From Eledone cirrhosa (Eukaryota): DNA of 64,000 nt. Shown here in pieces: positions 37,200 to 60,798 of this stretch (position 1 is its first letter; every line of letters begins with the position of its first letter). The translations under genes and the position numbers were made by a program. The stretch covers positions 8,928,001-8,992,000 of the forward strand of contig OZ024752.1 of the NCBI GenBank assembly GCA_964016885.1. Reading direction: 5' to 3'. The notes under the pieces are model-generated. The model did no database searches, was not told the DNA's origin, and saw nothing but the letters and a program-made list of their open reading frames with translations.

Positions 37200-40100
37200 C
37201 TAGCGGAGCTACCCGGCTTCGCTCAGTGTTAAAAAGCTTATTTAGAAAAGAATAATATTAACATTTTAATCGTTATTTAAAAACTTCTGTAATTTAGTTT
37301 CTATTTTTTAGATTTTAACATTTATCTTTAAATGACTGAATGACTGACGAATTTAAAGAAAATTCGTTATAAGAACATTTAATTTGTTTTACTGAAGTGC
37401 TTTTGGATGCACAATGTTTTTTGTTTTTCCTTCTGGTGCGTACACGAATAAATCAGAAGGTTTACCGACGCGTGAGCAAGCCACATACAGCTGTCCATGT
37501 GAGAAGCATGGATTTTCTAAATTTAGTCCACACACTTGTAGCGATTGTCCTTGTGCTTTATTGATAGTCATTGCAAAGGCGAGTCGCACCGGAAACTGCA
37601 AACGTTTGAAATCGAATGGCGTATCTGTTGGAATTATTGGGATGCGTGGCAAGAGTACATCTTCTCCTTTAAATTTTCCATTTAAAATTGTAGCCTCGGT
37701 GATATTGTTCGTCTTTTTCACTGAAAGTCTGGTACCGTTGCAAAGTTGTGGTGGATTGATTTTTCGGAGAAGGATGATAGGCACGCCAATTTTCAATGTT
37801 AAAATGTGCGGTGGCATGCCTGGCAAATCAAGTGAATTCAAGAATTCAATTGGATAATTGATAATTTCGTCTTGATTCATTACAGTATCGATGGACTTAT
37901 ACGTTGTCTCTTCGCCTGGTATTTCGTTTTGAATGCTGAAATTAATGGCATTGACATCGGTGTTTTTGGCTGCTAATATAGCACGTACACTGAGCCACTG
38001 ATGATTTTTGTAATGCTGCGCAATATTTGGGAACACTTTGTGAATCAGTTCGTCTCTGGTTGCCGTGATTCTACAGAAGTTTGTTGGCAATGTGATACAT
38101 TTTGTGGAATCATCGATTACCATTTTCCCATTCCCAATATCCAGCAATTGTTTTGTGAAACGTTCAGCGGATGCGTCATTTTGTAGTTGTACACGCATAT
38201 TGTTTTTTAAAGTTAATTTCTGTACGTGTCGCCATAAAACTGATGATTTGAGACATGCATTAAGCTCATCAGCGGGTGTTGATCGCGGTATAACTGGTAG
38301 AGTTTGTCGAAAATCACCAGACAATAAAATGAGTGTGCCACCGAAGAGGTGTTCATTTCCTTTCAAATCTTTTAGCGTATTATTAAGCGCTTCCAATGAT
38401 TTTTTGTGCGCCATAGTACATTCGTCCCATATAATGATTTTACATGATTGGAGTACTTTACCTATACCAGAATGTTTGGTAATATTGCATGTTGATGTCT
38501 CAGCAATTTGCATATTCAATGGCAATTTCAGGGCTGAATGTGCTGTTCGGCCACCATCTAAAAGAGTTGCCGCAATTCCAGATGATGTGATTGCCAGTGC
38601 AATATTATTTTCTGATCGTATAGTTGCCAAAATAAGTGAAATGAGAAAAGTTTTGCCTGTACCACCTGGCGCATCTATAAAATACAATGTGCCGCTTTGA
38701 CTTATAATTGCCTGCATAATTTGGTCATATACTATGCGTTGTTCTGGTAGCAATTTGGGAAGATTCGTTTGAACAAATGTACCCAATTCGGCGACATCAA
38801 AGTTTGTTTCTCATTGCAAATCACGATCGAAAATGTCGTTTACAGATCGATTCGGCGCAGGCATTCCCAATTGTACCAATGTTTTGTTAGCGATTGCTAA
38901 ACATATGACCTCAATGGAAACCAATGCTTCATTATACACATTTTGTGTGAATTGAATATTCATATTTTGATTTGTTGCACGCAAACGATGTAGGATGTCT
39001 TCACTCATGTAGTCTTTATATTTTTCCCAAAGATCTTTTGGATTTGATGGGAAGCACGTTGTCAATATTATTGAGAATAATGTGCGTATTTGCTTTGGTC
39101 GAGCAGTATTCGATGCATCAGCGAGTGAAGTGTCCCGATGTCCATCATTTTCAAGAAGATTTAATTCTTGGCAAGCTTCACGATAAGTGGCACATACTTG
39201 ACCGTTTACTGTTCTCAATTCTTGGAATGATGTCGGTCCACGTATGTGTCCAGGTCAGGAAAATAAGGACAGACGAAATGAAGATATCAAATTACAGCAC
39301 TTAGTTAAGGGCTAGCTGAAAAAGTATTCCCTGTAATGGGAGTGGAAGGGAAGTAATGTGAAACAGACACTATACTAATTCTATTGAAATTATATTAAAT
39401 TAAAGAGAGAATTTACTAATTCTATTGAAATTATATTAAATTAAAGAGAGAATACTAATTCTATTGAAATTATCTTTAATTAAAAAAATTTCACACTCGC
39501 TCTTTCACTCACTCTTTGTCTATACGTTGATTTCTCTTTCTCTGTTTATAGCACTCACTCTTTGTCTATACGTTGCTCTTTCACTCACTCTTTGTCTATA
39601 CGTTGATTTCTCTTTCTCCGTTTATAGCACTCACTCTTTGTCTATACGTCGCTCTTTCACTCACTCTTTGTCTATACGTTGATTTCTCTTTCTCCGTTTA
39701 TAGCACTCACTCTTTGTCTATACGTTGCTCTTTCACTCTCTCTTTGTCTATACGTTGATTTCTCTTTCTCCGTTTATAGCACTCTCTCTTTGTCTATACG
39801 TTGCTCTTTCACTCTCTCTTTGTCTATACGTTGATTTCTCTTTCTCCGTTTATAACTTTAGAGACAGTCTAATATAGGGAGTGGTTCAAAGCAGCCAGAC
39901 TACTTGCTCTTTCACTCGTTGCTCTTTCACTCTCTCTTTGTCTATACGTTGATTTCTCTTTCTCCGTTTATAACTTTAGAGACAGTCTAATATAGGGAGT
40001 GGTTCAAAGCAGCCAGACTACTCGCTCTTTCACTCGTTGCTCTTTCACTCTCTCTTTGTCTATACGTTGATTTCTCTTTCTCCGTTTATAACTTTAGAGA

Positions 40101-40357
40101 CAGTCTAATATAGGGAGTGGTTCAAAGCAGCCAGACTACTCGCTCTTTCACTCGTTGCTCTTTCACTCTCTCTTTGTCTATACGTTGATTTCTCTTTCTC
40201 AGTTTATAACTTTAGAGACAGTCTAATATAGGGAGTGGTTCAAAGCAGCCAGACTACTCGCTCTTTCACTCTCTGTTTGAATATACGTTGATTTCTCTTT
40301 CTCCGTTTATATCTTTGGACAAACAAACAAACATACATTCATTTTTATATATATAGA
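37200..40357 (-). mobile_element. Internally deleted Helitron with both termini, in NAF1 intron 7
   Basis: 5' A|TCTATATATATAAAAATG at 40357; 3' hairpin GCGAAGCCGGGTAGCTCCGC then CTAG|T at 37200; inserted at AT with no TSD; internal tandem repeats at 39500-40320. Confidence 0.92.
37389..38786 (-). CDS. Helitron RepHel C-terminal Pif1-like SF1B helicase (partial; upstream part at 38811-39245 is separated by a stop)
   Basis: DAPGGTGKT, IIWDE, GDFRQTLPV, LCNGTRL, QFPVRLAFAMTINKAQGQ, HGQLYVACSRV. Confidence 0.9.
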   Translation of the reverse strand: MGTFVQTNLPKLLPEQRIVYDQIMQAIISQSGTLYFIDAPGGTGKTFLISLILATIRSENNIALAITSSGIAATLLDGGRTAHSALKLPLNMQIAETSTCNITKHSGIGKVLQSCKIIIWDECTMAHKKSLEALNNTLKDLKGNEHLFGGTLILLSGDFRQTLPVIPRSTPADELNACLKSSVLWRHVQKLTLKNNMRVQLQNDASAERFTKQLLDIGNGKMVIDDSTKCITLPTNFCRITATRDELIHKVFPNIAQHYKNHQWLSVRAILAAKNTDVNAINFSIQNEIPGEETTYKSIDTVMNQDEIINYPIEFLNSLDLPGMPPHILTLKIGVPIILLRKINPPQLCNGTRLSVKKTNNITEATILNGKFKGEDVLLPRIPIIPTDTPFDFKRLQFPVRLAFAMTINKAQGQSLQVCGLNLENPCFSHGQLYVACSRVGKPSDLFVYAPEGKTKNIVHPKALQ

Positions 40358-41063
40358 TGCATACACACATGCGTCATCATCATCTTCGTTTAACGTCCAT
40401 CTTCCACGCTAGCATGGGTAAGGCGGGAGTTGTCCCACTTGGGGCAAGGTTGATCAGGTGACTGTGTCTCGCTCATATAGGACTATCTGGCAGGTTTTCT
40501 ACGGTTGGATGCCCGTCCTAACACCAACCACATTTATAATGTGGAACTGGGAACTTTTTACCCTGTTACCTACACGACCACATTACACTGGACTGTGTTT
40601 TTTCTTGTCGTGACACCTACACGATCTCGATCTCATCTCATTTATTTGGACTGGATGTTGTGGTACCAACTGTACAGAGAGAGGATGATGTTAGTGGGAG
40701 TGGGAGGATAGGGTAGGGGTAGTGGATTGGGGTGTATATTTAGTTAAGAGGTGCCTACTGACTAGGTTTCGCTTTGTACATACAGCGTGTTGAAAAAAAA
40801 AATCCTAGTTCTAGAAAGACATTTTTTCATAAAATTTTACTCTATCATCATCGTTTAACGTCCATCTTCCACGCTAGCATGGGTTAGATGGGAATTCTCC
40901 CACTTGAGGCAAGATTGGTTGGGTGACCGTGTCTCGCTGGTATAGGATTATCTGGCAGGTTTTCTACAGCTGGATGCCCTTCCTAACACCAACCACATTT
41001 ACAGGGTGATATTTGAAATAGTGTTGTACCTTTCTGATATATATTCATTCATTACATTTTCAG

Positions 41064-41110
41064 GAAAAAATCTCTGGCGAATCCAAAGAATAAACACCAC
41101 AAGAAATATG
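41064..41110 (+). CDS. NAF1: NAF1 exon 8 (KKSLANPKNKHHKKY)
   Basis: TTTTCAG acceptor and G|GTAATG donor; converts phase 2 to phase 1 exactly as exon 9 requires. Confidence 0.8.
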
Positions 41111-41980
41111 GTAATGTAAAGTTGTATTTCTTTTTTGATTGTAAATATTATAGGTATGTTTCTAAACTGTGTTATGGCCATGTTCCAACGAGATATACCT
41201 TCAGGGAGGCCAGCTAAACCTACACAGGTGTTGGGGGAATGTGTTATGTAGGTTTCTTAACTGTGTTATAGCCATGTTGGGGGAATGTGTTATGTATGTT
41301 TCTTAACTGTGTTACAGCCATGTTGGGGGAATGTATTTCTATATTTGTCATTTTTAGTAATTTGTCAAAGAAAACAAACACTCATCTAGTTCAGTGCTCC
41401 CGCATTGTGAGGTTGAGTTAACAGAGTAATTGAGGTCCTTTCTACAGCGTAGGGTTAAGTCTTGAAAACAGAATAAGAGTCAATCACAGCAACTGGAGCA
41501 AATAGAATTGGGTTTTTTTCTTCTTTTTTTTGCTATGGGACACAATCTAATATCTATCTATGCCAGGCGTGGGGAATTTTTTTGGGACGTGGCTCATCAT
41601 AAGGTAGGCCACATAGTTTTTGAGAACAATACTGTAACATAGTATGAGTGGATTATGGCTGGTTTGAACAGAAAGAGATGGGAAAATTCTGGCCGGTTTA
41701 AATCCTAAATGGTAAAACTAGTGGAGTAGAGAGTGTAGCCTGACAAAATGTCCAACAGTATTCATTATACAAGTAAAATTCCGTTATAACGAATTTTTCG
41801 ATATAATGAAACTTTTTTCAATCCATGAGGTGATAACAAGCAAGCGCTTGATTTGTTTCAGCCAATCTCATAAAGAATTTTCATTATAATGGAATTTCAC
41901 TATATTCTAATTTCAAGTCCAGTTATTATTGGGCTTAATGAAATAGATCAAAATTATCATTGTTATTATTATCATTTCAG

Positions 41981-42801
41981 AGGGCAATGTAAGCAACCAA
42001 GGATATCGAAATGAACCAGAATTCAACCCACAGCAACATAACAGATGGCGCTTTAATACTAACACAGGTCCATTTCCTCCAAATGGACCGAGAAATCAAC
42101 CATTTGATGCTTCTAGCAATAGATTTCCTAATGCCTTTCATAACAGGCACCCAAATCCATCCAGCAATTGGCACCCAAATCCATCCAGCAATTGGCACCC
42201 AAATCCATCTAACAATTGGTCTACAAATCCGTCCAACAATTGGTCGACGAATCCATCTAACCAAAGGTCTCAAACTGAGAACAAGAACTGGATTCCAAAT
42301 CTTAATAAATGGCCACCAACAAATGACTCTAACAGAGGACCAACAAACAGCTTTAATAGTTGGTCTCAAAATGTTATTAACAGTTCAAGTATTCCTAATA
42401 ACTGGTCTGAAATCAGTTTAAACAGTTGGACCCAAAATAATCCTAACATTCCAACACAAAATACTGTTAATGTTCCACCCCAAAATAACCTTAATAGTTG
42501 GCCTTCAAATTGGCCAAACAACTGGCCCCCTGATATTAACAGCCCACCGCCAAACCTTTTTAGCATTCCTCCACCAAATGTTCCAAGTAGCTTCTCAAAT
42601 TCTACCAGCAACCCCTCTACAAGCCATCCAAACCACCCACCTCTACATGCTCAGAGCTGGACACAGAATCCACAATTATCTTCTCCTCCTCCGCAAACAC
42701 AAGGCTTCCCATCCAATAACAATCAGTGGCCACCTGAACATGTAAATAGTTCTTGGAACCAGCAGCCACATGGAAATTCCTACACATCAGAAAACTATTA
42801 A
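41981..42801 (+). CDS. NAF1: NAF1 exon 9, N/P/S/W-rich low-complexity C-terminus ending SYTSENY*
   Basis: TTTCAG acceptor; 821-nt open frame with no ATG, so missed by the ORF track; total CDS 2001 nt = 666 aa. Confidence 0.85.
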
Positions 42802-44393
42802 CTTCAAACAGTAATGAATGTAGCTTGATTAACCCTTTACCATTTACATTACTCTATATATACTATTGTATTTTCATGGTAAAGGCTTTACCTCACATAA
42901 TATCAAATATCTGAGATTTTGAAAGTGTTTATTTTGAGATCAATACCTTAACATCAGTTTCAGTGGCCAATTACAGCCAGTTTGAAGAGAAAGAGGTAGA
43001 GGATTCTGGCTGGTTTGAACATTAAAGGGTTAAGTAATTGGGTTTCAATTGCCACCTACTGGCCTTGCTTGAATGTTATTTTTCTTGCAATTACTTTTCT
43101 AATAATAACTGCTCTTGCATAAACTAACCTGTGACTCCAGGATCAATCTCATCAGTCATAAACTCTGAGCTTACATTTGAGAGTGAGGATCAGTGTATCA
43201 GTTGACTAGGGACTTGTTATAAGACATGCTACCGAAAATAAATGGTTCTCTGTTGGTTTCAATAATGAGGATTCATTGAAATATCGTTTACATGGCTGAA
43301 TATTATATACTTTTTCTAACCTAATTCTCTGGCAGATTTACACCCTTTACCATTTACATTAGTCTATATATATAATATTGAATCTGAGATTTTGATATTA
43401 TTTATTTTGAGAACAATACCTTAACACAGTATGAGTGGCTTGTTTGAACAGAAAGAGGTAAGAGAATTCTGGCCAGATACAGTTGGTTTAAATGCTAAAG
43501 GGTTAAAGCCACCCATTCCTGAGTCTGTGCAGTCAACCACGCTACAACAATTTCAGTGCTTTTCTTTTCCTCTCTCCACCATAGTATCCTTCCAGCACAT
43601 AATCTGCATCACCTTGACCATAGTTTTCACAGGGCTTTCTCCAAGGACCCCTACATGGCTGTCTTCTCTGTTCCTGCACATTTTGTCACACCTGTCCATT
43701 ATTTGCTAACATCCCCACCCTCACTTGACTCAAACAATCATTCCTTCTGCATCAATCGGACAAACAGGCGAGCTGATTCACAACTGATTAGGAAAAGACA
43801 CTGGTTGCTCATCATTTCCATTCCAGGAATCCCTCCATTTCTCTGATTTGGGCTTAACCGTACACGCTGGACTGCCAAACTTTTACTTCTGGAGTAAGCA
43901 TTGGTTAGTATTTCTGAACAATTTTAACCTTTACGATGCTGACTTTTTTTTATGAATTGCTTCCCTTGACGCTATTGTGTGTTTAGGGGAGATTACTCTC
44001 TCGGCGACTTATGTTGCCGACAGCGCCAAGAAAGTTAAGTATTCACTACAGTTTCTCTAGCAAACACACACACACACACACACACCTTACATACGCCCAC
44101 ACTACAATGGTATGTACCCTTCACTCACATAGACAAAAGCACATACCCACACAACACATGCTTGCTGAAATACCTTGTATAAAACACAATCAGCTCACAC
44201 TTATAGATAGTACCATCATTATGCACGCATATAAAACATACAAGAAACAGACCTAGCCACCCAAACACACACACGGTAACCCTTGGTTTGCCACTCACCT
44301 TCAGATATATATATATATAATTATGTAATTATAAACAACACAATTATATATATAATTATGTAATAATAAACAACACAAAACAATTATTCCATT

Positions 44394-44549
44394 TACCAAA
44401 GGTATAACGGATGAAGTATTTAACCTTTGGAATAATTCAGTTTATTTCTTATTTGCTAGTACAAAAAATCTTAAGAAATATAATTCTTCAAATAAGAACT
44501 AAAACTGAATTATTCCAATGTTAAATACTTCCTCCGTTATATCTTGGTT
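44394..44549. repeat. Fold-back inverted repeat / MITE
   Basis: ~60-bp imperfect arms: ...TATAACGGATGAAGTATTTAAC...GGAATAATTCAGTTTT / AAAACTGAATTATTCC...GTTAAATACTTCCTCCGTTATA. Confidence 0.8.
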
Positions 44550-44824
44550 TAATAATATACAAGAGAAAACTAAGTGTAGATTTCTACCCCTCTATTACTG
44601 AATCCTTATTAATTAACCCTTTAGCATTTAAACTGGCCATATCCAGCCAGAATTTCTTGACCTCTTGCTGTTCAAAATAGCTAAACTGGCCATTCATACT
44701 GATGATAAGGTATTGTTCTCAAAATAAATAACATCAATATCTCATAGATTTGATATTATGTGAGATAAAGCCTTTACTGCAAAAATACTAGAGTAAATAT
44801 AGAGTAATGCGAATGCTAAAGATT

Positions 44825-45060
44825 TAAAGTTTTAGAATTCGCTAGACAATTTATTAATAAATCCAATTTATAGGAGGGTGTTATTTTACACGTTAGGAAC
44901 ATGCTACTTTTCAAAGAAGAAACTTGGGTTAAAAAATCAAACCCAGAAAACCCCTTTGATGTCTCTGGGAGCATATTAAATTTTTCATTCTAATGAACGA
45001 TTTCAGACGTGTCTGTTGAGCTCATCTGTCTTCGTGAAACCTTTGGTAGATGAATAATTG
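44825..45060 (+). mobile_element. Penelope-like RT fragment plus a degenerate hammerhead
   Basis: LEFARQFI...LLFKEETWVKKSNPENPFDV; then CTAATGA-ACGA..TCGT-GAAACCTTTGGTA. Confidence 0.65.
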
Positions 45061-45151
45061 TTTTGTGTTATTACATAATTATATAGCTCTGTAGCATACA
45101 TAGAGCACTCTCCCTTCCTTTAACCTTTCTATGGAAATACTTTATATATAT

Positions 45152-45812
45152 ATATAGTAAAAAATTGAACGGGAACAAAACAGAGAGGCTGTACGAACAA
45201 AGGTTTATTAGTTTCACGCTCTTGAGAGTGGGGTGGTGGTGGGGAACAGGAAAATCATAGACAAAAAATCATAGACAGAAATAAACAAGTACAGTAAATA
45301 AATCAAACAAAGGTAATGCAAAGAAAGGAAAAAACAAGTGTGGGAAGGTGTGTGGAAAGTTCAGAGAGTGGTCACGGCGGATTAGATCGGGGTTGAGCCT
45401 GTAGTCAAGGTATATTCCAAAGGTATGGAAGCCGTGGCAGCGTGTATTGTATAGTAAAAAATTGAACAGGAACAAAACAGAGGCAGTACGAACAAAGGTT
45501 TATTAGTTTCACGCTCTTGAGAGTGGGGTGGTGGTGGGGAACAGGAAAATCATAAACGTAAAAACACAGGCAATCGTGGACAAAAAATCATAGAGAAAAA
45601 TAAACAAGTACAGTAAATAAATCAAACAAAGGTAATGCAAAGAAAGGAAAAAACAAGTGTGGACAGTTCAGAGAGTGGTCATGGTGGATTAGATCGGGGT
45701 TGAGCCGGTAGTCAAGGTATATTCCTAAGGTATGGGAGCGTGTATTGTATAGTAAAAAAATTGAACGGGAACAAAACAGGCAGTACAAACGAAGGTTTAT
45801 TAGTTTCACGCT
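45152..45812. repeat. ~300-bp direct tandem repeat (about 2.2 copies)
   Basis: TATAGTAAAAAATTGAAC...GGTTTATTAGTTTCACGCTC recurs at ~45152, 45449 and 45748. Confidence 0.85.
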
Positions 45813-46513
45813 CACAGTCGTGGAAATTGTTTAATACCAAACATAATGTTTATGGTAAAAAACGCTTTCATTTCGGCAGAAACTGTTGGACGCCATAACA
45901 GATCAGATTTTCCTCGGTTAGAAATTTGTTGTTGTGCATAGCGATTTGTCTCTTCTGCCACAACTTCGAAGAAAGTTTGTGGTAAAAATAAAAAAAAATA
46001 ATCCAGTGCTTTAGCATCGGGTGGTAATGTGTGTTGTGGTCCAGTATTTTCATTAAAATCCGAAACATGTATCGATGTTGTTTCTTTCAACCACGTTAGT
46101 GTTTTTTCAATGGTGTCAGTTATCTCTTCGCTTTCACTTTCAAAGTGACTATCATCATCATCATCAGATATATCAGAAATAAATATATCTGATTCGTTTG
46201 AAGATAAATCACTGATATTATCTTCTGTTTCTTTTTTATCTTGAATGTCGTAGGATGTAAAACCTTCAAATTCGTTGTCGCTACTTTCGGAAGCCATGTT
46301 ACACTTTCAACGTTAAAAACACATGTTATCGCAAGTTCTTTAACTATACTAAGAGTTAATTTTCGTGCGTAAGGGCTTTATCTCGCAGTAAACTCGAATT
46401 GAGATTTTGATGATGTCAATGTTTATTTTTAGAAAGAGATCTCTGTGTAGTATTAAATGTCGGTTTGAATAAATGAAAGGGGACATAATCTTGTCGGTTT
46501 GAATGCTAAAGGG
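45812..46513 (-). mobile_element. piggyBac (PGBD4-like) left end with transposase N-terminal fragment (ORF 46297-45812)
   Basis: TTAA|CCCTTTAGCATTCAAACC TIR at 46513; acidic N-terminus, TGP...LDYFFLF...EETNRYA...W.P...EMKAF. Confidence 0.9.
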
Positions 46514-46517
46514 TTAA

Positions 46518-47135
46518 ACCAATCGATAACTTCACTAGTTCCTTTCCATAATTTTAAATAAGATAAATTAGATAAATTCTTAATTTGTGGTATTATTCTG
46601 TCCAGAATATTTTTGCTAAGTCTGCCAAGGTCCGATTTAGATGGTGCAATTAATCTGACTGGTAAATCGGTTTTGAAGTTCCTTTTATGATCCTTCATAT
46701 TAATCTTAGGTTTCCTTGGCATGAAGGGTTGTGTCCTATTTTCAATGCCTAGTTCATGCATTATATAAGAGGCATTTGTATTCAATTTTTCAAGGTCGTC
46801 TTTATTTGCTACTTTGTATTTCTTCCTTAATTCCTTTAAAATAAGGTCGTTATAAATGTCCTTTTGTATTCCGTAAAGATTATTAGTTTTGTCAGACTTG
46901 ACTAGAATTTTCTTCGTTTTCTCCAAGTTTTCAATATTATTTTTAAGTAATCCTGGCCTTTGAAGTTGTTTTTGAATTTGATGCTTTGGATGATAGATAT
47001 GATATCATTTTCAAAATCCATTAGTAGTTTGTTGTGGGGTGGATTTTTTTAGATTTGAAGATTTTATCCAGATTGGAAACATATTTTTTTTTTCTGTGTA
47101 GCTGTTGGGTTTACTATTTTAGTGGAGTTCAGCAA
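46518..47135 (-). mobile_element. Penelope-like element ORF fragment
   Basis: FKSKKNPP, KSDKTNNLY, MKDHKxNF, PVRLIAPSKSDLG. Confidence 0.85.
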
Positions 47136-47339
47136 TTTGTGTAGCAATAAGTTGTAATAGTGTATGAAAATATTTGTCACTACTTTTTTTATACACTGTT
47201 GAATGAATGAATTTGTTTTGCTGCATATTCAGAGGTCACCATTTTTAGTGAGCTAGTCCCAGGATCCCAGCTACTAAATTTAATCGAAATATGAGATAGG
47301 AGAATTTTCATACAATATCAGGCCGTGTGAGAATTATCT

Positions 47340-48690
47340 CTCACTACAAAGGTTTAGGCGGGGTGGTCAGGCATCCTGTCTAATTGGATATAATATACTG
47401 GCACATGGGCAAACAAGGAAGAAGGAACATACCTCAAAATTATGTTATGTGAACATTTTGTTCGAAAGTTCCCGCCGCTGTTGATTCTCTTACACACACG
47501 TAATTTAAACCAAATTCGTTACATTCTGCCAAGTGTGAATCTTCCATCCAACCTGTTCTCGTTATTGGTCTGGGTTTTCCTTGATCCAACCAGTATTTCC
47601 CGTGATCCAGTGTACTTCCCATGTATGGTACAGAGGATAAACTGATGCAACCATCCATTAAACATAAGCTCTGTTCCCCCTGGTGATGAGCGTTAGACCA
47701 TTTACCATTATTTAATATCGTTCCGTGTTGAATAGCTAAACCTCCCCATTCTGTACTCGTCAACGGTTTTCTTAACAGTGAATGGTTTGTCCACTCATGC
47801 ACAAATGTATCGCCCTGTCGTATTTCTTTTACGGTGTGAAGACCTCTCCAGTCGTGAAACGTCATGTTCATCTCGCACTTATTATCTATGAATGTTCCTC
47901 CATAGTCTTCTACTAGTTTTTTAGGCGCCATATAGAAATAAGCGTATTGTGGTAACAGTAACTCATCTATTTTTGTTGGACGTATTTTCTGAAAGCCGTC
48001 ATTTGGTATTTTATTGCTTCCTCTCGGGTTATTGTATCCTATATATTTTCCTGTCCACATAAATTTGAAAATAAGGAAGCGGGTTGTTGATAAATTGATC
48101 TTCTCCTCGTTGTACTATCCACTCTGAACACATAATGTTAGATATCTTGAAACCCGCCTTTTGGATTCTGTATTTTGTAGCCAATTTCATGTTTGTTTCC
48201 CATTCTATCGGCTTAACCCACGAGGTCAGGTAATAAGGTACCAAGTAATCTGCCGATACACATGTGCCTCTAGTCATGTGATTACTCAGCGAAGGCGGAG
48301 GATTAAGTTTGTCTTGAGTTTGAGTCAGTACTTCAAACGTACCTTTGGCCTCATTCATATTTGTACTTTTTACACAGTTCTGAAACTTCCGTGTAAATAC
48401 GACTGTTCTTCTGAATGGTCCAGTTGGCTCGGGTATGTTGACCACGTCACCGTGCGCTGTGCTACTCCATCCACCTCCTCCATCATTTCTTGCAGTTTCC
48501 TGCTGCCGTCAACATTATCAGACTGCAAAGGTCGAAAGTAGTTATCAAGCCCCAGGTAATGTTTCGCAGTGATTGCTGCTGATGCCAATATTCCGACTGG
48601 ACCTGATTGTATAGCTTCTCCGATGAATTTCTTATCTGCATCCCAAGTGTCGATATCTTTTTGTCCATACGCAATATTTTGTGTGGCAAA
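47340..48690 (-). pseudogene. Endogenous parvovirus/densovirus-like capsid (VP) gene remnant with a decayed PLA2-like VP1u
   Basis: Frameshift-linked ORFs: ATQNIAYGQKDIDTWDADKKFIGEAIQSGPVGILASAAITAKHYLG (resembles the vPLA2 HDxAY..AD..F region), RRTVVFTRKFQ, YLVPYYLTSWVKPIEW..YRIQKAGFKISNI, INNPLPYFQIYVD, EIRQGDTFVHEW; similarity judged by eye. Confidence 0.7.
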
Positions 48691-49549
48691 GTTTATAAGA
48701 TGTAGGCGTATAACACAAAATTACTGTAGTTGGTTGTCGAGAGTTTACAGACGTCAGATTCTTTGTATGAATGCCAAATAGCCATTTATTGGGTTATAGT
48801 CGGAACCCAGTCGTTCCTGAGGATTTGTCGTAGCTTCACGTGAAGACCTCGTGAAAAATTCCAGCATTTTGAGGACAGCAGATTATTTTGTGTATCTCGG
48901 TGGATACGAATCTGCTGAACGGATGTATGTTTATTACGGCTAGTTTGCGTGTCCACTCCATGAGGGAATTTAGCCGGATGGAAGGCTATGGAAAACAGCG
49001 GACTGACCCGTGTCTCTTGGTTGAGAGACATCGCTGAACTGAGGTTATCAGCCCAGAGTTATGATGTCATCGACCAACATCAGCTTGGTCGTGATTGGTC
49101 AGTTTGTCGGTAAGGTCAATCAGTGTGTAATCAGTAGCAATCAAATTCTCAGAATTAGAAAGCAGTGAGCCTTCTGAGAATTCAAATATGAATCTGAAAG
49201 TAATCAGCTTCTACGAATTCAAGTGAGAATTAGAAAGTAGTGTTTTTCCACGAATTCGAGTGGAGAATTTGTGTACGCTACAAAAGAATGCACACAGTTT
49301 ACAATGCTGTAACAAATGCATCACAAAACACATATATTTCTGGGTAGTGAAATCATAAATAAACTTACTTGATATGTAACACGTCTGTGTTCGTGGGAGG
49401 TATAGAATGAACTGAGCTGGGCACAATTGAAAGGCATGCGTGTGGGGCTTGAGTTGTCAGACATGTCAATGGAATTTGATTAAACCTCCTGCTTATACAA
49501 CAGATCTAAAAGTGCCGCCCCTATCGCCCCCCTCTAGCTACGCCACGGC

Positions 49550-50503
49550 CCAATGGTATGGTTAGGGAATTTCTCTTTAAGTGTGTGGAGGAGGAATAGG
49601 CCGACTAAATCACACACGTCAGCACTGTCAAAAGAACCCATTGAGACATCAAAGGGGTTCTCGGTTAGATTTTTTTTACCCAAATTTCATTATTAGCAAA
49701 GAGTAAAGTATTTCTAGCATGCAAAATGACATTCTCTTCAATATCGGAAATATTAATAAACTTTTTAGCGAAATTTAATGCTTTCCTTAACAGAGGGAGA
49801 GTAATAGACGGGTAGAAGTCTACAATGTCAAATTGGGTGAATCTAGAACTATTTTTAAGCCAATGTTCTACAGAAGAGCTATTTATCCATTGGAGTAATT
49901 CTGACTTACTTCTAATATGTTTGTTTATGTTATTTAATATCTTTTTGCTAGCAAGTCCGATTTCAGTCTTAGCAGGGTTGATTAATCTGCAACTGGGACG
50001 ATTATTAAAATTAGATTTGTGATCTTTAAGAGTGATATAGGCATTATGTTTTGCTAGTTTTTCTGTTCTATTGTCTATTTTTAATTTGCTAGCTAATTCT
50101 TTGGCTTCATTATTAATAGTATTATAGGTGTTAATATTAACTATTTCGTATTTAGAGGTGATGCTATCTGTTAAGAGTTGGTCATGTAAGTTATTATTAA
50201 CTTCGTATAAATTTTTAGTTTTATCAGAAAAGGAACTTATTTTTAGAAGATTTAAATTTAAAAATATCGTTAGATAGTTTAGATTGAAAAATGTTATAGT
50301 ACTTACGGAATTTGATTTGATTGATTAAATTAACTAAGTCTAGTTCAAAAGTGGTCATGTTTTTACCCTTTGTGGGTATTTGAGACTTGATATCAAAGTA
50401 TTCTGTAGAGTCCGTGATAAAGTGTCCATCGAAAATCAATGCGCTCCATCTCGTTCTTTTCACAACTTTTTCTACTTTATCAATCAACATTTTAGTGTAG
50501 GAA
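49550..50503 (-). mobile_element. Penelope-like element N-terminal/RT fragment
   Basis: KRTRWSA, TLKDHKSNF...RLINPAKTEIG, PFDVSMGSFDSADVCDLVGLFLL. Confidence 0.88.
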
Positions 50504-50605
50504 GTTTTAGGCGGGAAGTGGTCGTCAGTCATCCCGTCTAATTGGTTATGGTTTACTGGCACATTTCAAACAAGGAATAAAGACACCTCAATTTATGTTA
50601 CAAAA
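50504..50605 (-). pseudogene. Second, diverged copy of the 3' part of the putative capsid remnant
   Basis: Colinear with 47352-47448 (TTTAGGCGGG..CATCC.GTCTAATTGG..TACTGGCACAT..CAAACAAGGAA..ACCTCAA..TTATGTTA). Confidence 0.6.
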
Positions 50606-50949
50606 AAACATTCTTTATGTAGGAGCAATTACAAAATATATACGAATACATTAATGCTCCTAGGTTGGGAATATGTTTAAAATGTCAAATACTGCCACAT
50701 GGTGTTGGTGTCATCACTTGAGCCACTGTGTGATTATCGCACGTCTATTGTCTCCAAGCACTCATTGTCCAAGTGTTATTGTCTCAGCCACTGACGTCAG
50801 AACTAAGGGCAGTTAATCGACTGTGTAGGCAGTCGACGCTAGATGGCGTGATCTTCTACAAAGTGTTAGGTGTTGGTATGTTCTTGATGGAGTAATCCAA
50901 ATAATATCGATCCATATTAGGTATTGGTTAAAATTCATTTTAACTGAAG

Positions 50950-51910
50950 AGTGCTCGACTTTAAAGGGCTGGAAAGTGCCAATCTCAACTGAGGCCTGAC
51001 CCTATGTTGGTATGTCCGAGAGCCAAAGAACTTGTGAAGAGGATATTCAGTGGTTCCACTAAGTCATGTTTGCATGTTTTTAGGAGGACTGCTGGGAATC
51101 CAGCAGCTGAGTTTGTTCTAATCTCAGTTATGGCGGATATCACATCTTCCTCCATTTGTAGTTGATGGTCACCATTTCTTCATGGAGTGTTGTGCCTCAG
51201 TCGACGTGTGAACACACTTCTGTACTGTTCATTCAGTATTTCACTTATCCCTTGGGGATTCTCGGTTAATAAACGGTCTTCATGCAGTGTACCGAGGCAG
51301 TTTCTTTTGCAAATTTAAAGAAGGCGTTAGGGTTTGTTTTAATATTTTCTATGGCCCTGCTTTCTCTCTCTCCTTTTCATGGGAAAGTTTGAGTGCCTGT
51401 TTCAGATAGGGTTCCTTCTTGTTTTTCTGTTGTGCATTCAACTGATTTGAGAGTTTAGTTCTTTGTCTCTGGGAATAAAATTTTTATGTCCGTTGGCCGT
51501 TTTCTCTGGGACAAACCTATGGCATCCGGTTTGTATTGTTGTCATGAAAACTGAAAATGTGTGTTGGCGTCTTGTGTGGTGATGTTGTTGCTCCAGTTTT
51601 GCTTCCGGATCTCTTTTTGGATCTTTTTCCAGTTAGCCTTGTGAAAGTTTAGGCTGGATAAATTCCCGGTGATTCTTGATGGTTGTGTCTCTGTTGATTC
51701 TCTCGGACCACATATCATTAGTTCTACTAGGTTATGATCCGAGAAAATCGTTGGTATCACCTTTACATTGTGGATGAGCACTGCGTTGTTTGTAAAGCAG
51801 AGATCAAGGACATTCTCGCCTCTTGTTGGGAGAAGTACTGCTTGTTCCATGAACAGCCTGTGTGTGAGGGCCAGCAGGGACTCTGTCTGTCTCTGTTCTA
51901 GTGATGTCAT
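50950..51910 (-). mobile_element. CR1/L2-like LINE fragment (APE endonuclease C-terminus and linker)
   Basis: EQAVLLPTRGENVLDLCFTN, SDHNLV, NFHKANW, NIKTNPNAFF. Confidence 0.85.
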
Positions 51911-53910
51911 TCCAAGTGCCTACCTCCACCCCGAGGTATCGGAAGGTTCCAGAAGGATCTACTCGCGGCAGAGGCATCCCGTTGATCCCCGGGGGAGCCT
52001 CTCTGTTCACCATGAAGGTTCGGGCCCGTGAGTCCAACGAGAACGTCGTACGCTTTGACACGTTTACCGCCATACTGACCTAGGCACGAAATTCCCACGG
52101 CCTCGACTCAGACATGCGCTCCAAGAGCGGGTCGGTCGCTATGTTAAATAAAATCGGGGAAAGCGCATCACACTGTCTAACCCCTCTCAAAATCGGAATG
52201 GGACCACTCCGAGCGAATCTCGAATCTGGTCGTCGCCCCCGTGTATAGGTTGGCCACCAGCTAAATGATGTGGGCGCAAAACCCCTTCCGCCGCATTCCC
52301 GCGGCCACCAACTGATGGGGAACGTATCGAAGGTCTTTGCGAGATCCAAGAAGGCAAGATCTAGACGACGCAGTCGTCGGGCTCCCTTCCGACTCTGCGC
52401 ACGCCTTATCAACTCTGGAATCATGAAAACGTTATCGCCGCATCCGTCTGCCTTAATAAACCCGCGCTGTGCCTGGCTAAGCGGGGTCGCCTGCAGAATA
52501 CGTCCCGCCAGCACCTTCGTGTACAGGCGATAAATCGCAGAGCAAATCGTCAGTGGCCTCCAGTCAGACAGATAGAGCGGATTCCTCCTGCTCTTCGGGA
52601 GAAGAATCGATCTACCAACTTTAAGCCCGGTCAGCACCTGACCCGCCAAAAGGAAACAATTGAACAGATTCACGAAGACCGGGACCGGCTGCACGAACCG
52701 CCCTCGGGGAGACTCCGTCAGGACCGGCCACCGAGCCGGGCTTCAGCCCCCGGAGAGCTGCGGTGACCTCCGAGACCGTTAACGGGCGCAACAGCGTGGG
52801 GTTCACCTCGGCCAGCGGGACAGGGCAGACGCCGCCCGTGCCCTCGCCCAGTATGAGCCTCAGAGGTTTCTTTCGGTCAACCTCATATAGTCTCTGGTGC
52901 TGGGAAAACCTGGCGTAGACGCGCGTCGACCCCTCTCGCCGGCCTCCTGAGCTCCGACGGCACTTCCTCCCCCATGCTGGGGCTTGCGCCTCGTACCCGA
53001 ACGGGAAGAACGGAGGGAGTCTATCCAAGCTTCCCACGAGTCTCCGCCAGCCCTCGTCCGAAACCCCGTCGGCGAAGTCCAAGTCGCACTCCGCAAACTC
53101 CACCGACCATGCCGAACGACTGGGGACTGCGGTCCCACCAAAACTTCCCCTCCAGGCCGCATCTACGGGGACGGCCATTTGGGAGCGGGGGCCGGGACCA
53201 TCGGGCCACTCGACCTGCCTTTCGCTGTCAGGTCTCGCCTCTTGTCACTTATTTGTTTCCGAGTCTTGCTGGGGAGAAAGGACTCGAGGGCGACATTAAC
53301 GAACCGCACACCCTCTCGTACCAGCTGTTGCCCCTTCGTTTCAAGGATTTTAATCTCAACCAGCATCCGTTTCTCTTCCCACGTGGCTCGGGCCCAGCCC
53401 ACACCAGAGCACGTTTCTCTCTTTTTCTCTAGTTCTTTCGCATAACTGGCAATTCGTCTAGCGTTCGATTCATCGGGGTGTCGATACCGTATGTGCTGCG
53501 ACACCCCGGACACCGTGGCAAAGAATTTACCACAGAAGCCGTACCCTCAGCTCTTGCGGGGGCAGCGGTGGCAGGAACGAGAACAGATCCCTGCGTGAAC
53601 CCTGATCGAGTGGAGGGCCCCGGCTCCACCTGCGCAGAAACGGCATCTGAAAAACAAGCGGTCTTCGTGCCGATCGATCTGGTGTTGGCCAAAAGAGGCC
53701 GGCGTTGAAAAACTGCGGGGGCAAAAGCGGCAGTGCAACAACGGGACCCGTTTCAGAATGAGCGTGTCCGATTCGGCGTCTCCGGGGTGGGGTCCTCCGC
53801 CAGGTTCCGTAGTTGAGGGTGAAGCGGTTACCCGTTCTGCTACGAACTACGATAGTAGGTAAAGTTTCAAATCCGGTGGGGACGGCAATCTTACTGTGGT
53901 GCAGACCCCA
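51911..53910 (-). mobile_element. R2-like (RLE) non-LTR retrotransposon fragment: zinc fingers, Myb-like domain and RT; frameshifted and 3'-truncated
   Basis: CRFC..F....GQH...H, CRFC...H...C, CGKFF....VSQHIRYRHP, WEEKRML, WRPLTICSAIYRL, QRGF, LAFLDLAKTFD, GVRQCDALSPILFN, FRYLG; GC-rich. Confidence 0.88.
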
Positions 53911-53914
53911 GCCG

Positions 53915-55720
53915 ATGTCGATAAACCGCTGAAATGTTTGTGCAGCGTTGCGCAGACCGAACTGCATTCGCAGGAATTCAAATAAACCGAACGGTGTCGT
54001 GATTGCGGTCTTCGGAACATCAGCAGGCTCCATAGGTATCTGGTTATATGCTCGTATCAAATCTATCTTGGAAAAGATGCGTGCGCCTTGCAGAGAGGCA
54101 GAAAAGTCGTGCAAGTGAGGTACAGGGTAATCATCGGGTACTGTAGAATTGTTGAGTGCACGATAATCCTCACATGGGCGCCAATCATTCTCTGTTTTCT
54201 TAGGAACAAGGTGTAGTGGTGCAGACCAGTTGCTGGAGGAAGAGCGAATGATTCCAAGATGCAGCATGTGTTGAAACTCCTGTTTGGCGATTCTCAGTCG
54301 GTCTGGAGGCAGTCTCCTTGCTCGGGCAGCTGTGGATGGTCCTCTCGTCTCGATATGATGTGTGACACTATGTTTAATAGGTCCATCCATAAATACTGGG
54401 CGAGTGATGTCTGGGTATTTTTGGAGAATGCAGTTCTGACTGGCAAATTACAGGGCTTACTGTGGATTGCGTGGTAAATATACCTCTCACAGTGAGGTTT
54501 GTGGTGGCGTCAATAAGCCTCCAGTTCTTCATGTCCAACAGAAGGTTGAAGTGGTGGAGAAAATCGGCTCTTAAGATAGGGGTCGGCAGGTCTGCCACGA
54601 CGAACACCCATTGAAAACGACGTCTCAGGCCTAAATTGAGGGTCAGTGATTTCTCCCCGAAAGTCTGAATTGACGATCGGTTCACTGCCTGCAAAAAGGA
54701 CGGTGTTGGATGTCTTTTGCCCGAGACTAGTGAAACAGGAATAAAGCTAACCTGGGCTCCTGTATCCTCGAGGTAACGGATGCCTGTTGCTTGGTCGTTG
54801 ATAAAAAACAGACGACTTTTCTTCTAAGTCCCAGGGATGAACGTCTTCGCTAGGCCCTGGTCTGCCCAGTTCCCTGGGTGGTATTCTGGAAAGAGCACGG
54901 GGCCTTGCACTTAGATGCCTGTGCGCCGAATTCTACGTGATACCAGCAAAGGTTGCCAGACACGATTTTGACTGGGACTACTGGATCTTCGATGGAGAAA
55001 GGGTCTGGATCGACTGTTGCTGCGCCGCCGGTGTAATCGAAAGGTCAGGTTTTCTAATTGATTTGAGAGGGCTTTAATTTGACCAGCCTGCTCTCTGATC
55101 ATAGCCTGCAGCTCTGAAGTCTCGGAGGTGGAGTCTGAGGACGCTGCGTAAGGGTTCGTCTGATGATCAACTTGAGCCACTGAGGCAAAAGGGTTTGACA
55201 CCTGAGCGATATTATCCGCGAAAATCGCCAGTTCTTCTGGGGTTGCTGACTCGTTAGTCGACGCCAGAATGCCCTGCATTGATAGGGGCAAGCGCAGTAT
55301 AAACAGCCGTTTCAGCACATCTTCTGAAAGCGGTTGGTCTTCCATCAGCTGTCTCATCTTTTGCAATAGTTGGGATGGTTTTCTGTCCCCCAATTCTTCT
55401 GCAGACACGAGTTGGTTGAGTCGTCTCTGCTGTGACGCGGTCGTTCGTTTTATCAATTCCTTGCGGAATGATTCATATGACGCGGTGTCATGACGAGGTC
55501 CCTCACCTCAGCTAAAACTTCTGGCGGGACAGACCCAATGATGTGGGTGAGCTTTGCAGAATCGCTCTTAATTCTATTAGCGGCGAACCACAGGGTTGGG
55601 TAGTTGGACCAAAAAAAAACAGGGACCTTCAACGTTAAAGCTGCTTGCGGGGTTGGTATCTTGGCCTCTGTCGTTGGTTGTGACATGTTCATGTTGGTTT
55701 CTTGTTAGGCTACTGTCTGG
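53915..55720 (-). mobile_element. Ty3/Gypsy internal fragment (gag, protease, RT N-half)
   Basis: gag ELGDRKPSQLL; protease EDTGAQVS; [48 protein letters not shown]. Confidence 0.95.
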
Positions 55721-55750
55721 TTCGTGTTCGAATCACGTCGGGGGTCACCA
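55719..55750 (-). other. Gypsy primer-binding site, tRNA-Trp
   Basis: Minus strand ...CTACA-AT-TGGTGACCCCCGACGTGATTCGAACACG, complementary to the tRNA-Trp 3' end; LTR remnant follows at 55753+. Confidence 0.85.
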
Positions 55751-56079
55751 ATTGTAGTGGAAAAGTAATATTATGCCTACATGGCATAATATTAATAAGA
55801 ATGAATATGTTATTGTTGTTATTTGTTATAGTGAGAGAGAGAGGCCAAGTTAGCCATAAAGTGAATGCTTGTTGAAGTAGTTGTAGTTCATTGTAGGCTT
55901 TGTAGAAAATATGTAGTGCCATGTAGAATTGCCTGAATTTACAGTACACAGGTACACCATACTCGAATCTAGGCATCTATTTTGCATGGGCACTTATTCA
56001 GTTGGTTGTAGTTACATTTGGAGATTTTTTTGTGTACAACCACTCCGTTGCGGTTTTGCATGTTGTGGGTGGGTTGAGA

Positions 56080-56300
56080 TTTAGGACTATTAGTGTTTTG
56101 TTGTGATGCACCCTGATGTGTATGTTGTATTTAGTGCTATCTGAACGGGTCCAATACTCATTGTTGAAGTTAATAAGAGTTCTTCTAGCTGTTAATATGA
56201 TATCAATTTCATCTGTGGTTAGATCCGTATGCTTATAAGTCAAAAGGAAACGAATGATAGTGGATGAATGAACAATACATCGTTTCTCTTTGTAGAAATA
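56080..56300 (-). mobile_element. Penelope-like RT fragment
   Basis: IDIILTARRTLINFNNEYW. Confidence 0.65.
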
Positions 56301-56704
56301 AATGACTCCAGAAGGGGGTGAACAGTTAAAAATCAACGATCCTTTATTAAATGCGACATTTAATAAATTATGTACAATGTCAATTCAAACATACCTTGTG
56401 GGTTAATAGAAGTAGTGTAATTATATTCTCCGGTGCAGGAATAACGAAAGAATAAGCGAATGCATATTAGTCGAGATATCGTGGCGTCCTTGATCCGAAG
56501 GAGGGCATTTTCACATAGTCCCTCACGAAGCCAGCATGGTCAATATTTTGAGGAGCAAATCCTTTCACGTCTGTTCATGTCCGCGGTACATGAGAAAGAG
56601 AGAGCAAACCCGCGTCTGTGACCGGATGTATCTTGCCTCCGCTCTCTGAAGAGTTGTTAAGGGGAGGCAACTGCTAGTTGCTAAGCGACCATCTCAGTCA
56701 CTAC

Positions 56705-57800
56705 AAGTCTATCATAGAACCTTATTTAGTAGGTTGGGTGTTATGGAAGAATAGTAGTTTATGTCCATCTGGATGAATTTATGGTTTTTCTTATCATCTA
56801 TATTCTTGTACCATTCTATGACTTCACTATGTATCTTTACACAAGCTCAAACTAGATCTCAATTTAAGAGCAGGTAGGATTCTATCGATGATGTTTTTAC
56901 TGATTACTCCAATATCCGATTTGGATGGAGCAATCAATCTAACTGGCATATCTTCCTCAAAGTTTCTTTTGTGATCCTTTAAGTTAATCCGCGGCGGCCT
57001 AGATATAAATGGCTCGGTTCTTCCTTCTATTCCTAAATTGGTAATTAATTTATAGGCATCCTCGTTAATTTCTGAAGATCTTCAGCCAGGGCTTTTTTAT
57101 AATTTTTCCTAAGTTCCTTTAAAATCAAGTTGTTATATTCATCTTTGTTTATCCCATATAAATTATTTGTTTTGTCGGATTTAACCAATATTTTGTTAAC
57201 TATTTTTATTTCCGTGATTTTTTCTTTTAGAGTTCTAAGGTATTGGTGACCTGTATATGGGTTTTTCCTAAATTTAATTTTTTTAAGCACACCGAGCATT
57301 TCAGTTTCAAAATCCTCCAGGAGTTGTATGGAGGATTCTTTCTTGATTTAAATAAAGATTCAAAATTATTGCTGTTGGTTTTCCTTTCAGCATCTTTATT
57401 TTCGAAATGAAATGCTCGCCATCTCATTCTTCTAATAAAAGAGTTTGTTTGTTCAATAGTTTTCCTCATGTATTCCTCATTTGAAGGTATTGGTACATCC
57501 TTGAGGGATGTCGGGAAGTTAAAGAAATCCATGTTTATTGAATATGCAATCTATTGTATAAAAAAGCGCTCAACCAATTGGGAGCAATATATATTAAAGA
57601 GTTAAACAAGATTCAATGAGTACATCAAAGAATGTGTTTTACAGTAGATTGGAAGCACTCTACAGTAAAAAATAATTTCCAGAGTTATTAATATTAAAAT
57701 ACAAATATTAATAAAATAGATGTTCTTGTGATCAATTAAATTTTATTATACACATTTCAGAGGTACAACAGTATGTCCTCATCAGATAAAATAAAATGAT
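56705..57800 (-). mobile_element. Penelope-like element 5' part (ATG at 57532) with an upstream hammerhead-bearing pLTR-like region
   Basis: SLKDVPIPS, FIRRMRWRA, KSDKTNNLY, LKDHK, FIQMDI..YYSSI; minus-strand TTTTAT-CTGATGA...GAAA-TGTG-TA-TAATAAAA at 57740-57797. Confidence 0.85.
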
Positions 57801-57844
57801 ACATGACATACCCTGAGATGTTAAATGGTTAAGATTTAATCAAG

Positions 57845-58025
57845 GTAGTGATTAATTTCCTAGATGTTACGTTTAACTTAAACTCTGGCTTTTATTACTC
57901 TTTTCATAAGCCCAATGAAAACTTAAACTATGTTAGTTACTGCTCCAATCACTCTAAATCTGTAAAAAAAGCTATAGTAAATAGTGTGCAAAAACGCATT
58001 AGTAGAATATCAGCCAATAAAGCAA
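57845..58025 (+). mobile_element. Penelope-like RT thumb fragment (inverted relative to neighbours)
   Basis: INFLDVTFNL...HKPN..LNYV...SNH...KRISRIS. Confidence 0.8.
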
Positions 58026-58086
58026 TATATATATATATACATTATATAAAGAATGAGGAATCAGTAATGCATCAAACCACAATTTA

Positions 58087-58380
58087 TTAACATATTACAT
58101 ATGTTTCTCCAGGAATCTTCTCCGCCAGTCGTTGGAAGAGGAAAATTCCCAGCAGATCCGTTGCTTGGGTGGAGTCGCTTGACTCCATCGTTATGTCAAA
58201 GCTATCGGGTCTATCGCCGTACCGTATTAATATCTTTCTCGCTGCTACAATATTGTCTACTTCTCTTCGTGTGAGGTGAGATTTGCCCATAGCGTTCATG
58301 AGGCCTTATTAACAATTACTGGGGATATGGGCGGTAATAATCCGCTATGTCCAACTGTAGGAATTTCACTTGATGTTTGT
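58087..58380 (-). mobile_element. Penelope-like RT fragment
   Basis: DSFDITMESSDSTQATDLLGIFL. Confidence 0.7.
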
Positions 58381-58449
58381 TACCTAATAGCGAGAACCAG
58401 TCTATCACTTCCATGGTGGAGCTCCATAAGCTAAGATAAAAAGAAACAC

Positions 58450-59335
58450 TCACAGCCCCAATAATATTTCAACAGAACCTGCTAGCGCTACTTCCTCCAC
58501 AAACCCGACACCCCCGGCTGCCACATCATTTCTGCCTGCAACTACCTTACCGAACTAATCTCTGCCTTCCTTGACTCTATCCTTGCCCCCCCCCCCTCTC
58601 ACTGCCCTCCCCTCCCGGATTTTCAACACCAACCCCACCTTTCACCTTTTTGACTTCCTCACCTTCCCACCTTGCCCAACGCCTCCTTTACACTTTAGAC
58701 ATTAAATCCCTCTATACGCCCCCCCCCCCCCCCCCCCCACTACTGTGACCTTCATCCCTCCACCCCCCCACTGAGCTGGTCTTCACCCATAGCTGCTTCT
58801 CCCCTCTCGGGTGAATTTTACCAGCGCGTCACCGGAGTGGCCATGGGCACAAGAATGGGCCCCAGCTTTTTCGTTGGCCACATTAAGGGCCAGATCTTTG
58901 TCCAATACACTGATCCCACCCGTGAACTATACGGTCGTTATATTGACGATTGTATTGGGGCCACCCAGGGGCAGCTTGACTCCTCTTTTTCTTCTGTTCC
59001 TTCCACCACCTCTGTCCAGTTCTTGTGGACATCATTGACCCCCTCCCACTGACCCCTCATCACCTCTGCAGGCCACTGACTCCCACTCTACCTCCTCCCA
59101 CTCCACTCACACCAGACATTCCATACCCTACTCCCAACTTCTCCGGATCCGCCGCCTTTGCAGCGGAGATTAGGATTTCGAGACCCAATGTCTTTCTCTG
59201 GTCTGTCATTTCACTTGGAGGGGTTAACTCCTCCCTTGTCCACCACACCACCACCCTCGCTCTCCTCCGCCACTGTCTCCCCCCTACCCCTCTACCGAAA
59301 CATCCTGCGTCTCTTCTGAAACCTCCAGCCTGACT
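58450..59335 (+). mobile_element. Decayed Penelope/Poseidon-type RT fragment
   Basis: TLDIKSLYT, YQRVTGVAMGTRMGPS, YGRYIDDC. Confidence 0.8.
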
Positions 59336-59514
59336 TATCCCCCCCCACCCCATAAGGCGCCTTATGGTGGGGTAGGTAGTGTTTATACCCTGGTCATTGG
59401 TAGTCAGTTGTTATAAATATATGAGAATAGAATAGAATACAAGTAGGGATCACTCACCTTTATTTTCTTCTCTATTCTTTAACAGTGATTTAATACTTAC
59501 TTCAATGGTGTCAT

Positions 59515-59697: not shown

Positions 59698-59759
59698 AAT
59701 CTAAAAATAAGTTAACAAGACGTATTTGAAATTTATGACACGTTTATTCAGATTAAATA

Positions 59760-60762: not shown

Positions 60763-60798
60763 CTATGGGATCCTTTTTAGCGTCAAAAAGGGATTTGA

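Follow-up and report, generated by a model that had tools for sequence, protein, structure and literature searches.

The window analyzed here is a stretch of 64,000 nucleotides from Eledone cirrhosa (positions 8,928,001 to 8,992,000 of contig OZ024752.1, called C12 below). Three overlapping open reading frames are present on its minus strand (48370-48720, 48029-48508 and 47440-48114), and the original prediction, made from the sequence alone, had read them as frameshift-linked parts of a parvovirus- or densovirus-like capsid gene with a decayed phospholipase A2 segment, extending over 47340..48690. All three frames and the peptides quoted from them were recovered, and a tblastn search with the unbroken paralog VP1 L033 (614 aa) joined them as successive pieces of a single gene (E 8e-20 and 1e-118). 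The viral homology is narrower than the region annotated originally, spanning only 48677 to 47461, and is flanked at its two ends by two unrelated host repeats. The features of the locus are as follows.

37392..64000, minus strand: window part of a larger tract in which fragments of transposons and viruses share one strand (whole tract: 61 of 61 long ORFs minus)
47353..47459, minus strand: host repeat at the 3' end of the element, made up of the final 107 bp of a ~365-bp LTR of gypsy type (88-96% matches)
47461..48677, minus strand: endogenous parvoviral element, an internal VP1 fragment in single copy (tblastn and blastn to paralogs; junction-spanning read contigs)
48454..48677 (to 48681 by tblastn), minus strand: piece 1, C-terminal half of the viral phospholipase A2 (PLA2) / VP1-unique region (L033 residues 54-129, 58-59% identity)
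48041..48499, minus strand: piece 2, glycine-rich linker and N-terminal jelly-roll strands, up to the INNPLPYFQIYVD segment (L033 residues 126-275, 63% identity)
47461..48051, minus strand: piece 3, middle of the capsid protein (L033 residues 273-471, 56% identity)
48679..48766, minus strand: host repeat at the 5' end of the element, non-coding (74-77% matches to many genomic copies)
60132..60263, minus strand: short NS1 fragment of the viral lineage of the window VP1 (82% identity over 44 aa, NS1 residues 408-451, E 4e-18)

The element is ~1.2 kb long and corresponds approximately to residues 54-471 of L033. Its reading frame breaks near 48505 and again near 48052, and the frames homologous to the paralog are free of stop codons. 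Piece 1 (59% identity across 75 aa, paralog residues 55-129) lacks the Ca-binding loop and the catalytic His, and the Asp position falls on the junction. The PLA2-like segment proposed originally was thus recognized correctly, but not its decay: the HD motif is intact in the paralogs and is absent from the window copy because the gene was cut at the junction with a transposon-derived repeat, which removed ~53 N-terminal residues, Ca-binding loop included, and not because of substitutions. At the other end, piece 3 stops ahead of the last two core strands, the paralog model having additional strands at approximately residues 498-502 and 513-531, past residue 471. Since these strands are missing, the window copy could presumably not build a shell. 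There is no NS gene beside the VP1 fragment, and a separate short NS1 fragment lies 11.5 kb away. Taken as a whole, the insert is almost certainly a dead parvoviral capsid fragment.

In Pfam and PDB searches, the three window pieces alone gave no relevant match, and the identification rests on paralogs, profiles, the ESM Atlas and folds. The paralog L033 carries the viral PLA2 domain (PF08398, E 6e-10), which was above the cut-off in L033, L041 and P0001-P0004; a VP1-unique PLA2 with Ca-binding loop and HD motif is therefore a feature of the family. HMMER aligned the paralog PLA2 to AAV VP1, and the paralog INNPLPYFQIYID segment to the AAV NNLTSTVQ segment, a parallel that had been drawn in the original prediction. 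When a profile built from 12 relatives was compared with PDB sequences, parvoviral capsids were the first 32 of 34. In the ESM Atlas, the best matches of window piece 2 were viral capsid clusters, at 0.97, a score whose calibration for partial proteins is unmeasured.

The fold was modeled on the shell region of the paralog and not on the window copy. A first model was poor (pLDDT 43), with parvoviral matches in Foldseek, and weight was put on a second model (66 sequences, pLDDT 67, pTM 0.69), for which all the rows listed by Foldseek were parvoviral capsids (best E 3e-10). In a VIA search of 48,161 chains, ranks 1-20 were all parvoviral capsids (Z 17.7-10.2), followed by a chain at 6.1. As the suggested structural check had anticipated, the paralog model is a single parvoviral jelly-roll. 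Ranks 1-12 were vertebrate parvoviruses (Z 17.7-16.5, rmsd 4.1-6.2 A, 260-278 residues), and ranks 13-20 were invertebrate parvoviruses (Z 14.2-10.2). The original label of a parvovirus- or densovirus-like gene can be refined in that the modeled capsid fold of the window family is closer to vertebrate parvovirus capsids than to densovirus capsids.

Two viral lineages, A and B, can be distinguished in this genome, with ~24-27% identity to each other both in NS1 and in VP, and the window VP belongs to lineage B. The NS1 of both lineages passes PF01057 (1e-16 and 7e-16). The NS1 adjoining lineage-B VP1 at other loci matches this family at 1e-16 and has AAV Rep proteins as best PDB matches, and an NS1-type protein near VP-related loci matches it at 1.4e-10; a cognate NS1 with an SF3 helicase, as expected of Parvoviridae, is thus found at other loci and not beside the window VP. 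Full-length relatives at 38-39% identity are present in public assemblies, and a profile search returned 35 representatives at E<=1e-30. Two named VP homologs, from Octopus vulgaris and Sepia pharaonis, were among the 20 proteins examined, which points to a coleoid cephalopod as the likely host. The window element is a parvoviral VP1. A host gene that had been domesticated, or a protein of cellular or transposon origin merely resembling a capsid, might account for the silence of the window pieces in Pfam and PDB and for the stop-free frames; but the two frame breaks, the missing start region, the cuts at both ends and the fact that all significant structure and profile matches of the family are parvoviral largely refute this explanation, which we regard as extremely improbable.

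Both junctions were then considered with respect to the surrounding repeats. The repeat at the 5' end has a second piece at 48991-49286, and its other copies sit upstream of an ORF matching DUF4371 (E 9e-8) and, weakly, zf-BED, which we take to be a hAT-like transposase. Matches to the gypsy-type LTR at the 3' end are paired ~4.8 kb apart and enclose an RT-RNaseH-integrase ORF. Read contigs of 1840 and 1813 nt cross both junctions at depths of 11.4 and 6.7 (two runs of one sample), and the junction depth resembles that of the single-copy flanks. The viral fragment is integrated in the host chromosome. An assembly chimera of contaminating viral DNA would be compatible with the fact that the best read sets come from one sample of one study, possibly the assembly's own, and that coverage of the element is scant in two reduced-representation runs of other samples; single contigs crossing both junctions at single-copy flank depth, together with frameshifts and truncations that are not expected in a replicating virus, make such an artifact most implausible. 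The original view of a fossil of viral infection, now seen to be integrated, truncated at both ends and twice broken in frame, thus held.

A sequencing-run search listed no RNA run. At the 5' junction (48620-48720), a different sample (run X5) contributed about two reads, too few to indicate a shared insertion. An identical 7-nt word is present at both junctions (47455-47461 and 48676-48682) and may represent microhomology or chance; a target-site duplication was considered for this direct repeat and rejected, because the flanks belong to different repeat families and do not join. At two other loci, viral NS or VP sequence directly adjoins retroelement coding sequence, in frame behind a gypsy-like integrase (L017:1-1941) or behind an RT-like ORF (L005:1514-2960), the element labels being assigned by eye in both cases. 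These viral-retroelement joins hint at a retroelement-aided capture.

In order to place the window copy among its relatives, the 3.0-Gb genome was searched. The DNA search detected related stretches at 70-73% identity, and the nearest copies of the window element have 65-73% DNA identity to it. Protein searches yielded 58 matches for NS of lineage A, 31 for VP of lineage B and 74 for NS of lineage B, which merge into at least 67 parvoviral sites on at least 23 contigs. Between the window copy and the paralog, 66-84% of the nucleotides at codon positions 1-2 are identical, and 41-50% of those at position 3. As the divergence is concentrated at third codon positions, it would have arisen under protein-level selection in replicating viruses, and because of this pattern the window copy appears to be a separate capture and not a duplicate of another insert. 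In a tree of 19 rows, several of them fragmentary and none of them a named viral reference, the window piece nests in a 100/100 clade of six copies of the same genome. That its 1.2 kb contain just two frame breaks and not a single stop suggests that the insertion is fairly young.

Additionally, lineage-A copies that are 99.6-100% identical were observed on four contigs (L048-L051, L025, L060-L061), at C14:8.497-8.503 Mb, C10:49.486-49.493 Mb, C5:102.83 Mb and C998:34-39 kb. Their arrangement as inverted repeats, both head-to-head and tail-to-tail, resembles that of rolling-hairpin intermediates, and they are either very recent insertions or viral DNA of a current infection that was built into the assembly.

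The surroundings of the element were analyzed by a census of non-repetitive ORFs of at least 150 aa in C12:8,858,001-9,166,000, in which the longest ORF was kept at strand overlaps (n=77). The one-strand tract extends past the window over ~141 kb, from ~8,965,000 to ~9,106,000, and 61 of its 61 ORFs are on the minus strand, versus 4 of 16 outside it. The borders of the tract were chosen after seeing the data, and the ORFs are not independent (several per element, and seven tandem ankyrin ORFs); the strand contrast is large in spite of this. The 61 ORFs comprise 12 parvoviral ORFs, 16 of transposon families (E<=1e-4), 7 ankyrin ORFs and 26 with no assigned family, and Pfam matches in the tract include Helitron, piggyBac-like DDE, RT, integrase, hAT and IS1595-like. 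Six of the 67 parvoviral sites are located in these 141 kb of the 3.0-Gb genome, where 0.003 would be expected, and all of the tract's parvoviral sites are on the minus strand except for one short plus-strand NS piece. Dense transposon fragments in a single orientation are the layout of uni-strand, flamenco-type piRNA loci. The tract, in which many transposon classes share one orientation, is on this analogy likely a uni-strand piRNA cluster. The antisense position within a cluster that had been proposed originally is supported as to strand bias, with the plus strand as the putative transcribed one.

Several further observations concern the tract and similar regions. At its far end (C12:9,072,000-9,089,000, L045-L047), a same-strand stack contains VP-NS blocks and fragments of both lineages. 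The seven tandem minus-strand ankyrin-repeat ORFs are located at L064:5649-6164, L065:2658-3329 and 6805-7476, and L066:1134-5739, and adjoin a long Helitron-like ORF set in L067. Within the window, identical transposase-like ORFs of 208 aa at 60890-61516 and 62961-63587, ~2.07 kb apart, represent a recent tandem duplication. Six other hot spots with multiple parvoviral matches, mostly on a single strand in the search listings, are found at C18:15.04-15.08 Mb, C25:7.435-7.453 Mb, C2:345.366-345.396 Mb, C27:17.61-17.64 Mb, C3:58.11-58.18 Mb and C841:32-83 kb, and are further candidates for piRNA clusters.

By analogy with flamenco-type loci, it is reasonably likely that the putative role of the window insert is that of a piRNA template. 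Endogenous viral elements (EVEs) are frequently over-represented in piRNA clusters in arthropods, as described in PMC7527727, where it is also reported that densovirus targeting in Diaphorina citri did not require EVE-derived piRNAs; a defensive role is therefore not guaranteed. This dispensability is in line with a neutral fossil, that is, a VP1 fragment that persists in a repeat-tolerant region and produces no functional small RNA, the strand bias having another cause, e.g., a long transcript within which insertions in sense orientation are selected against. The 65-73% DNA identity to the nearest known relatives, which may be too low for targeting, points in the same direction. Against it, one-strand ORFs from many unrelated element classes form the pattern of a uni-strand cluster, and 6 of the 67 parvoviral sites lie in a single tract, so that we consider the neutral fossil possible but rather doubtful.

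The gene order of the parent viruses was deduced from relatives, because no NS gene adjoins the window copy. We examined the loci of 15 of the 58, 12 of the 31 and 20 of the 74 search matches together with flanking stretches, and considered those NS1 starts with at least 300 nt of upstream DNA. In 20 of the 22 starts examined, NS1 is directly preceded by the C-terminus of a capsid gene on the same strand. This holds for all 15 starts of lineage A, of which five are near-identical, and for 5 of the 7 starts of lineage B. The spacers between the VP stop and the NS ATG, measured in five cases, are 25, 48, 53, 54 and 61 nt long, and no hairpin was found in the four that were folded. Tight same-lineage NS-to-VP junctions were seen 0 times. 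The order NS-then-VP was observed only between different lineages, at two junctions on C12 that are 400-830 nt apart; on C23, a truncated lineage-A NS that was filtered out of the 22-start count lies ~160 nt before a lineage-B VP.

In 4 of 4 lineage-B copies, a TATA box precedes the VP1 ATG by 33-34 nt. The upstream sequence common to lineage B stops ~200 nt before VP1, where one copy has an 83-nt palindrome (z -8.6, the best of 61 windows); of 5 lineage-B/B2 copies, it is the only one to show a strong hairpin where the left end is expected. One set of near-identical lineage-A copies carries, upstream of VP, a 19-nt motif that recurs in inverted form downstream of NS, within fold-back junctions. 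Fold-back palindromes flank the viral unit in this lineage-A set. These features may be traces of the terminal hairpins that a linear parvoviral genome of 4-6 kb should have; terminal palindromes are absent from the window copy. A 37-nt sequence common to an upstream and a downstream end was considered as a terminal repeat and rejected, as it belongs to a host repeat ORF.

According to a 2024 review (PMC11357303), all parvoviruses have the NS cassette on the left and the VP cassette on the right, and the loci examined depart from this arrangement. A reversed parvovirus gene order was not found in a word-match search of the literature covering few subscription journals, including the portions drawn on of PMC10267136 and PMC11822035. 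No exogenous genome of the lineage was retrieved from the viral contigs of IMG/VR or from JGI metagenomes by an exact-short-peptide scan, which is weak for distant relatives, and the capsid-first step is for this reason deduced from endogenous copies. The same gap would be consistent with VP-then-NS units that arose when an ordinary NS-then-VP parvovirus formed head-to-tail concatemers or circular episomes, or that stem from a virus whose genome is circular, and so would the existence of tandem and inverted multimers of viral units and the mixed NS-to-VP junctions on C12 and C23. A concatemer junction, however, should hold two termini, each 120-600 nt in parvoviruses (PMC6537627), and a promoter, for which spacers of 25-61 nt, unstructured where folded, leave no room; moreover, at the loci examined NS was never tightly followed by a VP of its own lineage, as it would be in an ordinary genome, TATA boxes and a common upstream sequence precede VP, and the lineage-A palindromes flank the unit. 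We therefore consider a concatemeric or circular origin improbable, and the family of the window element probably has a capsid-first layout.

In the explanation that we propose, which we hold to be quite probable, the window contains a truncated, twice-frameshifted, integrated VP1 fragment that does not code for a capsid and likely serves only as an antisense piRNA template in a one-strand trap. Circulating strains would have been captured separately many times, and its entry into the germline would be one such event, by end-joining or by retroelement-aided template switching. The tract would be transcribed from the plus strand, so that the insert is read antisense, and the transcript would be cut into piRNAs against related viruses. 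In the parent viruses, a linear monosense genome would carry the capsid gene ahead of NS1. On a broader scale, we lean somewhat towards the view that coleoid cephalopods host undescribed parvoviruses of at least two deep lineages, with a linear monosense arrangement of terminus-VP1-NS1-terminus, the window lineage being PLA2-bearing and vertebrate-like in fold, and that these viruses may have been captured dozens of times and stacked in antisense orientation, the resulting flamenco-like piRNA cluster serving as an antiviral record that is inherited.

The sites, at least 67 in number, record the gene order and the capsid family of viruses that have not yet been isolated. A capsid-first monosense layout, if true, breaks the NS-left, VP-right rule and raises the question of how NS1 could be produced early when it is encoded last, 25-61 nt behind the capsid stop. 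Likewise, a mollusc element with a vertebrate-like capsid has implications for the origin of the AAV/bocavirus-type shell, and the tract provides a precise candidate for a piRNA cluster in a cephalopod; no paper devoted to cephalopod piRNA clusters was among the literature matches listed.

As for cephalopod parvovirus EVEs, the word-match search, covering few subscription journals, found only a 2016 survey and the 2024 review to be relevant, and the latter, which deals with aquatic parvoviruses, names no cephalopod parvovirus in the text drawn on here (PMC11357303). In the 2016 survey, Francois et al. described an Octopus vulgaris transcript (JR446908, 565 nt) whose VP is 33% like that of AAV, and NS fragments from O. 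bimaculoides (one WGS sequence, beside a transposon), Sepia and Euprymna (PMC5013282). The window element is therefore a new copy of a lineage glimpsed before. As also reported there, mollusc sequences nearer to vertebrate parvoviruses branch outside all genera, and the Euprymna and Sepia NS rows resemble, by eye and not by computation, the NS1 of the present lineage. In the parts of the survey drawn on here, the cephalopod records are short single-gene fragments only, and nothing is said of VP1 structure, of the order of genes, of a census of copies or of a cluster setting. The EVE alone adds to these known fragments, and the capsid-first order is the surprising part.

The EVE of D. citri is likewise a parvoviral fragment, located in a piRNA cluster that gives primary piRNAs (PMC7527727). 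It differs in that it is an NS/ITR fragment of an ambisense densovirus, 86% identical to a known virus, in an insect, and its piRNAs were measured, whereas the window element is a VP1 fragment in a mollusc, has no known cognate virus and lies in a cluster candidate defined from sequence alone. The capsid of the Penaeus monodon metallodensovirus (6WH3) is the best PDB sequence match of lineage A (E 4e-8), which differs from that virus in carrying a PLA2 domain, and the model of the window family matches it with a Z of 12.3. The best structural matches of this model are the capsids of human parvovirus 4, AAV, H-1, bufavirus, B19 and a Syngnathus chapparvovirus (Z 16.5-17.7, 260-278 residues). 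The vertebrate capsids and the window family share the PLA2-bearing VP1 N-terminus and the AAV-like segment around NNLTSTVQ, but the window family is set apart from the vertebrate parvoviruses by an identity of only 9-15%, by its invertebrate host and by a capsid gene that would stand before NS1.
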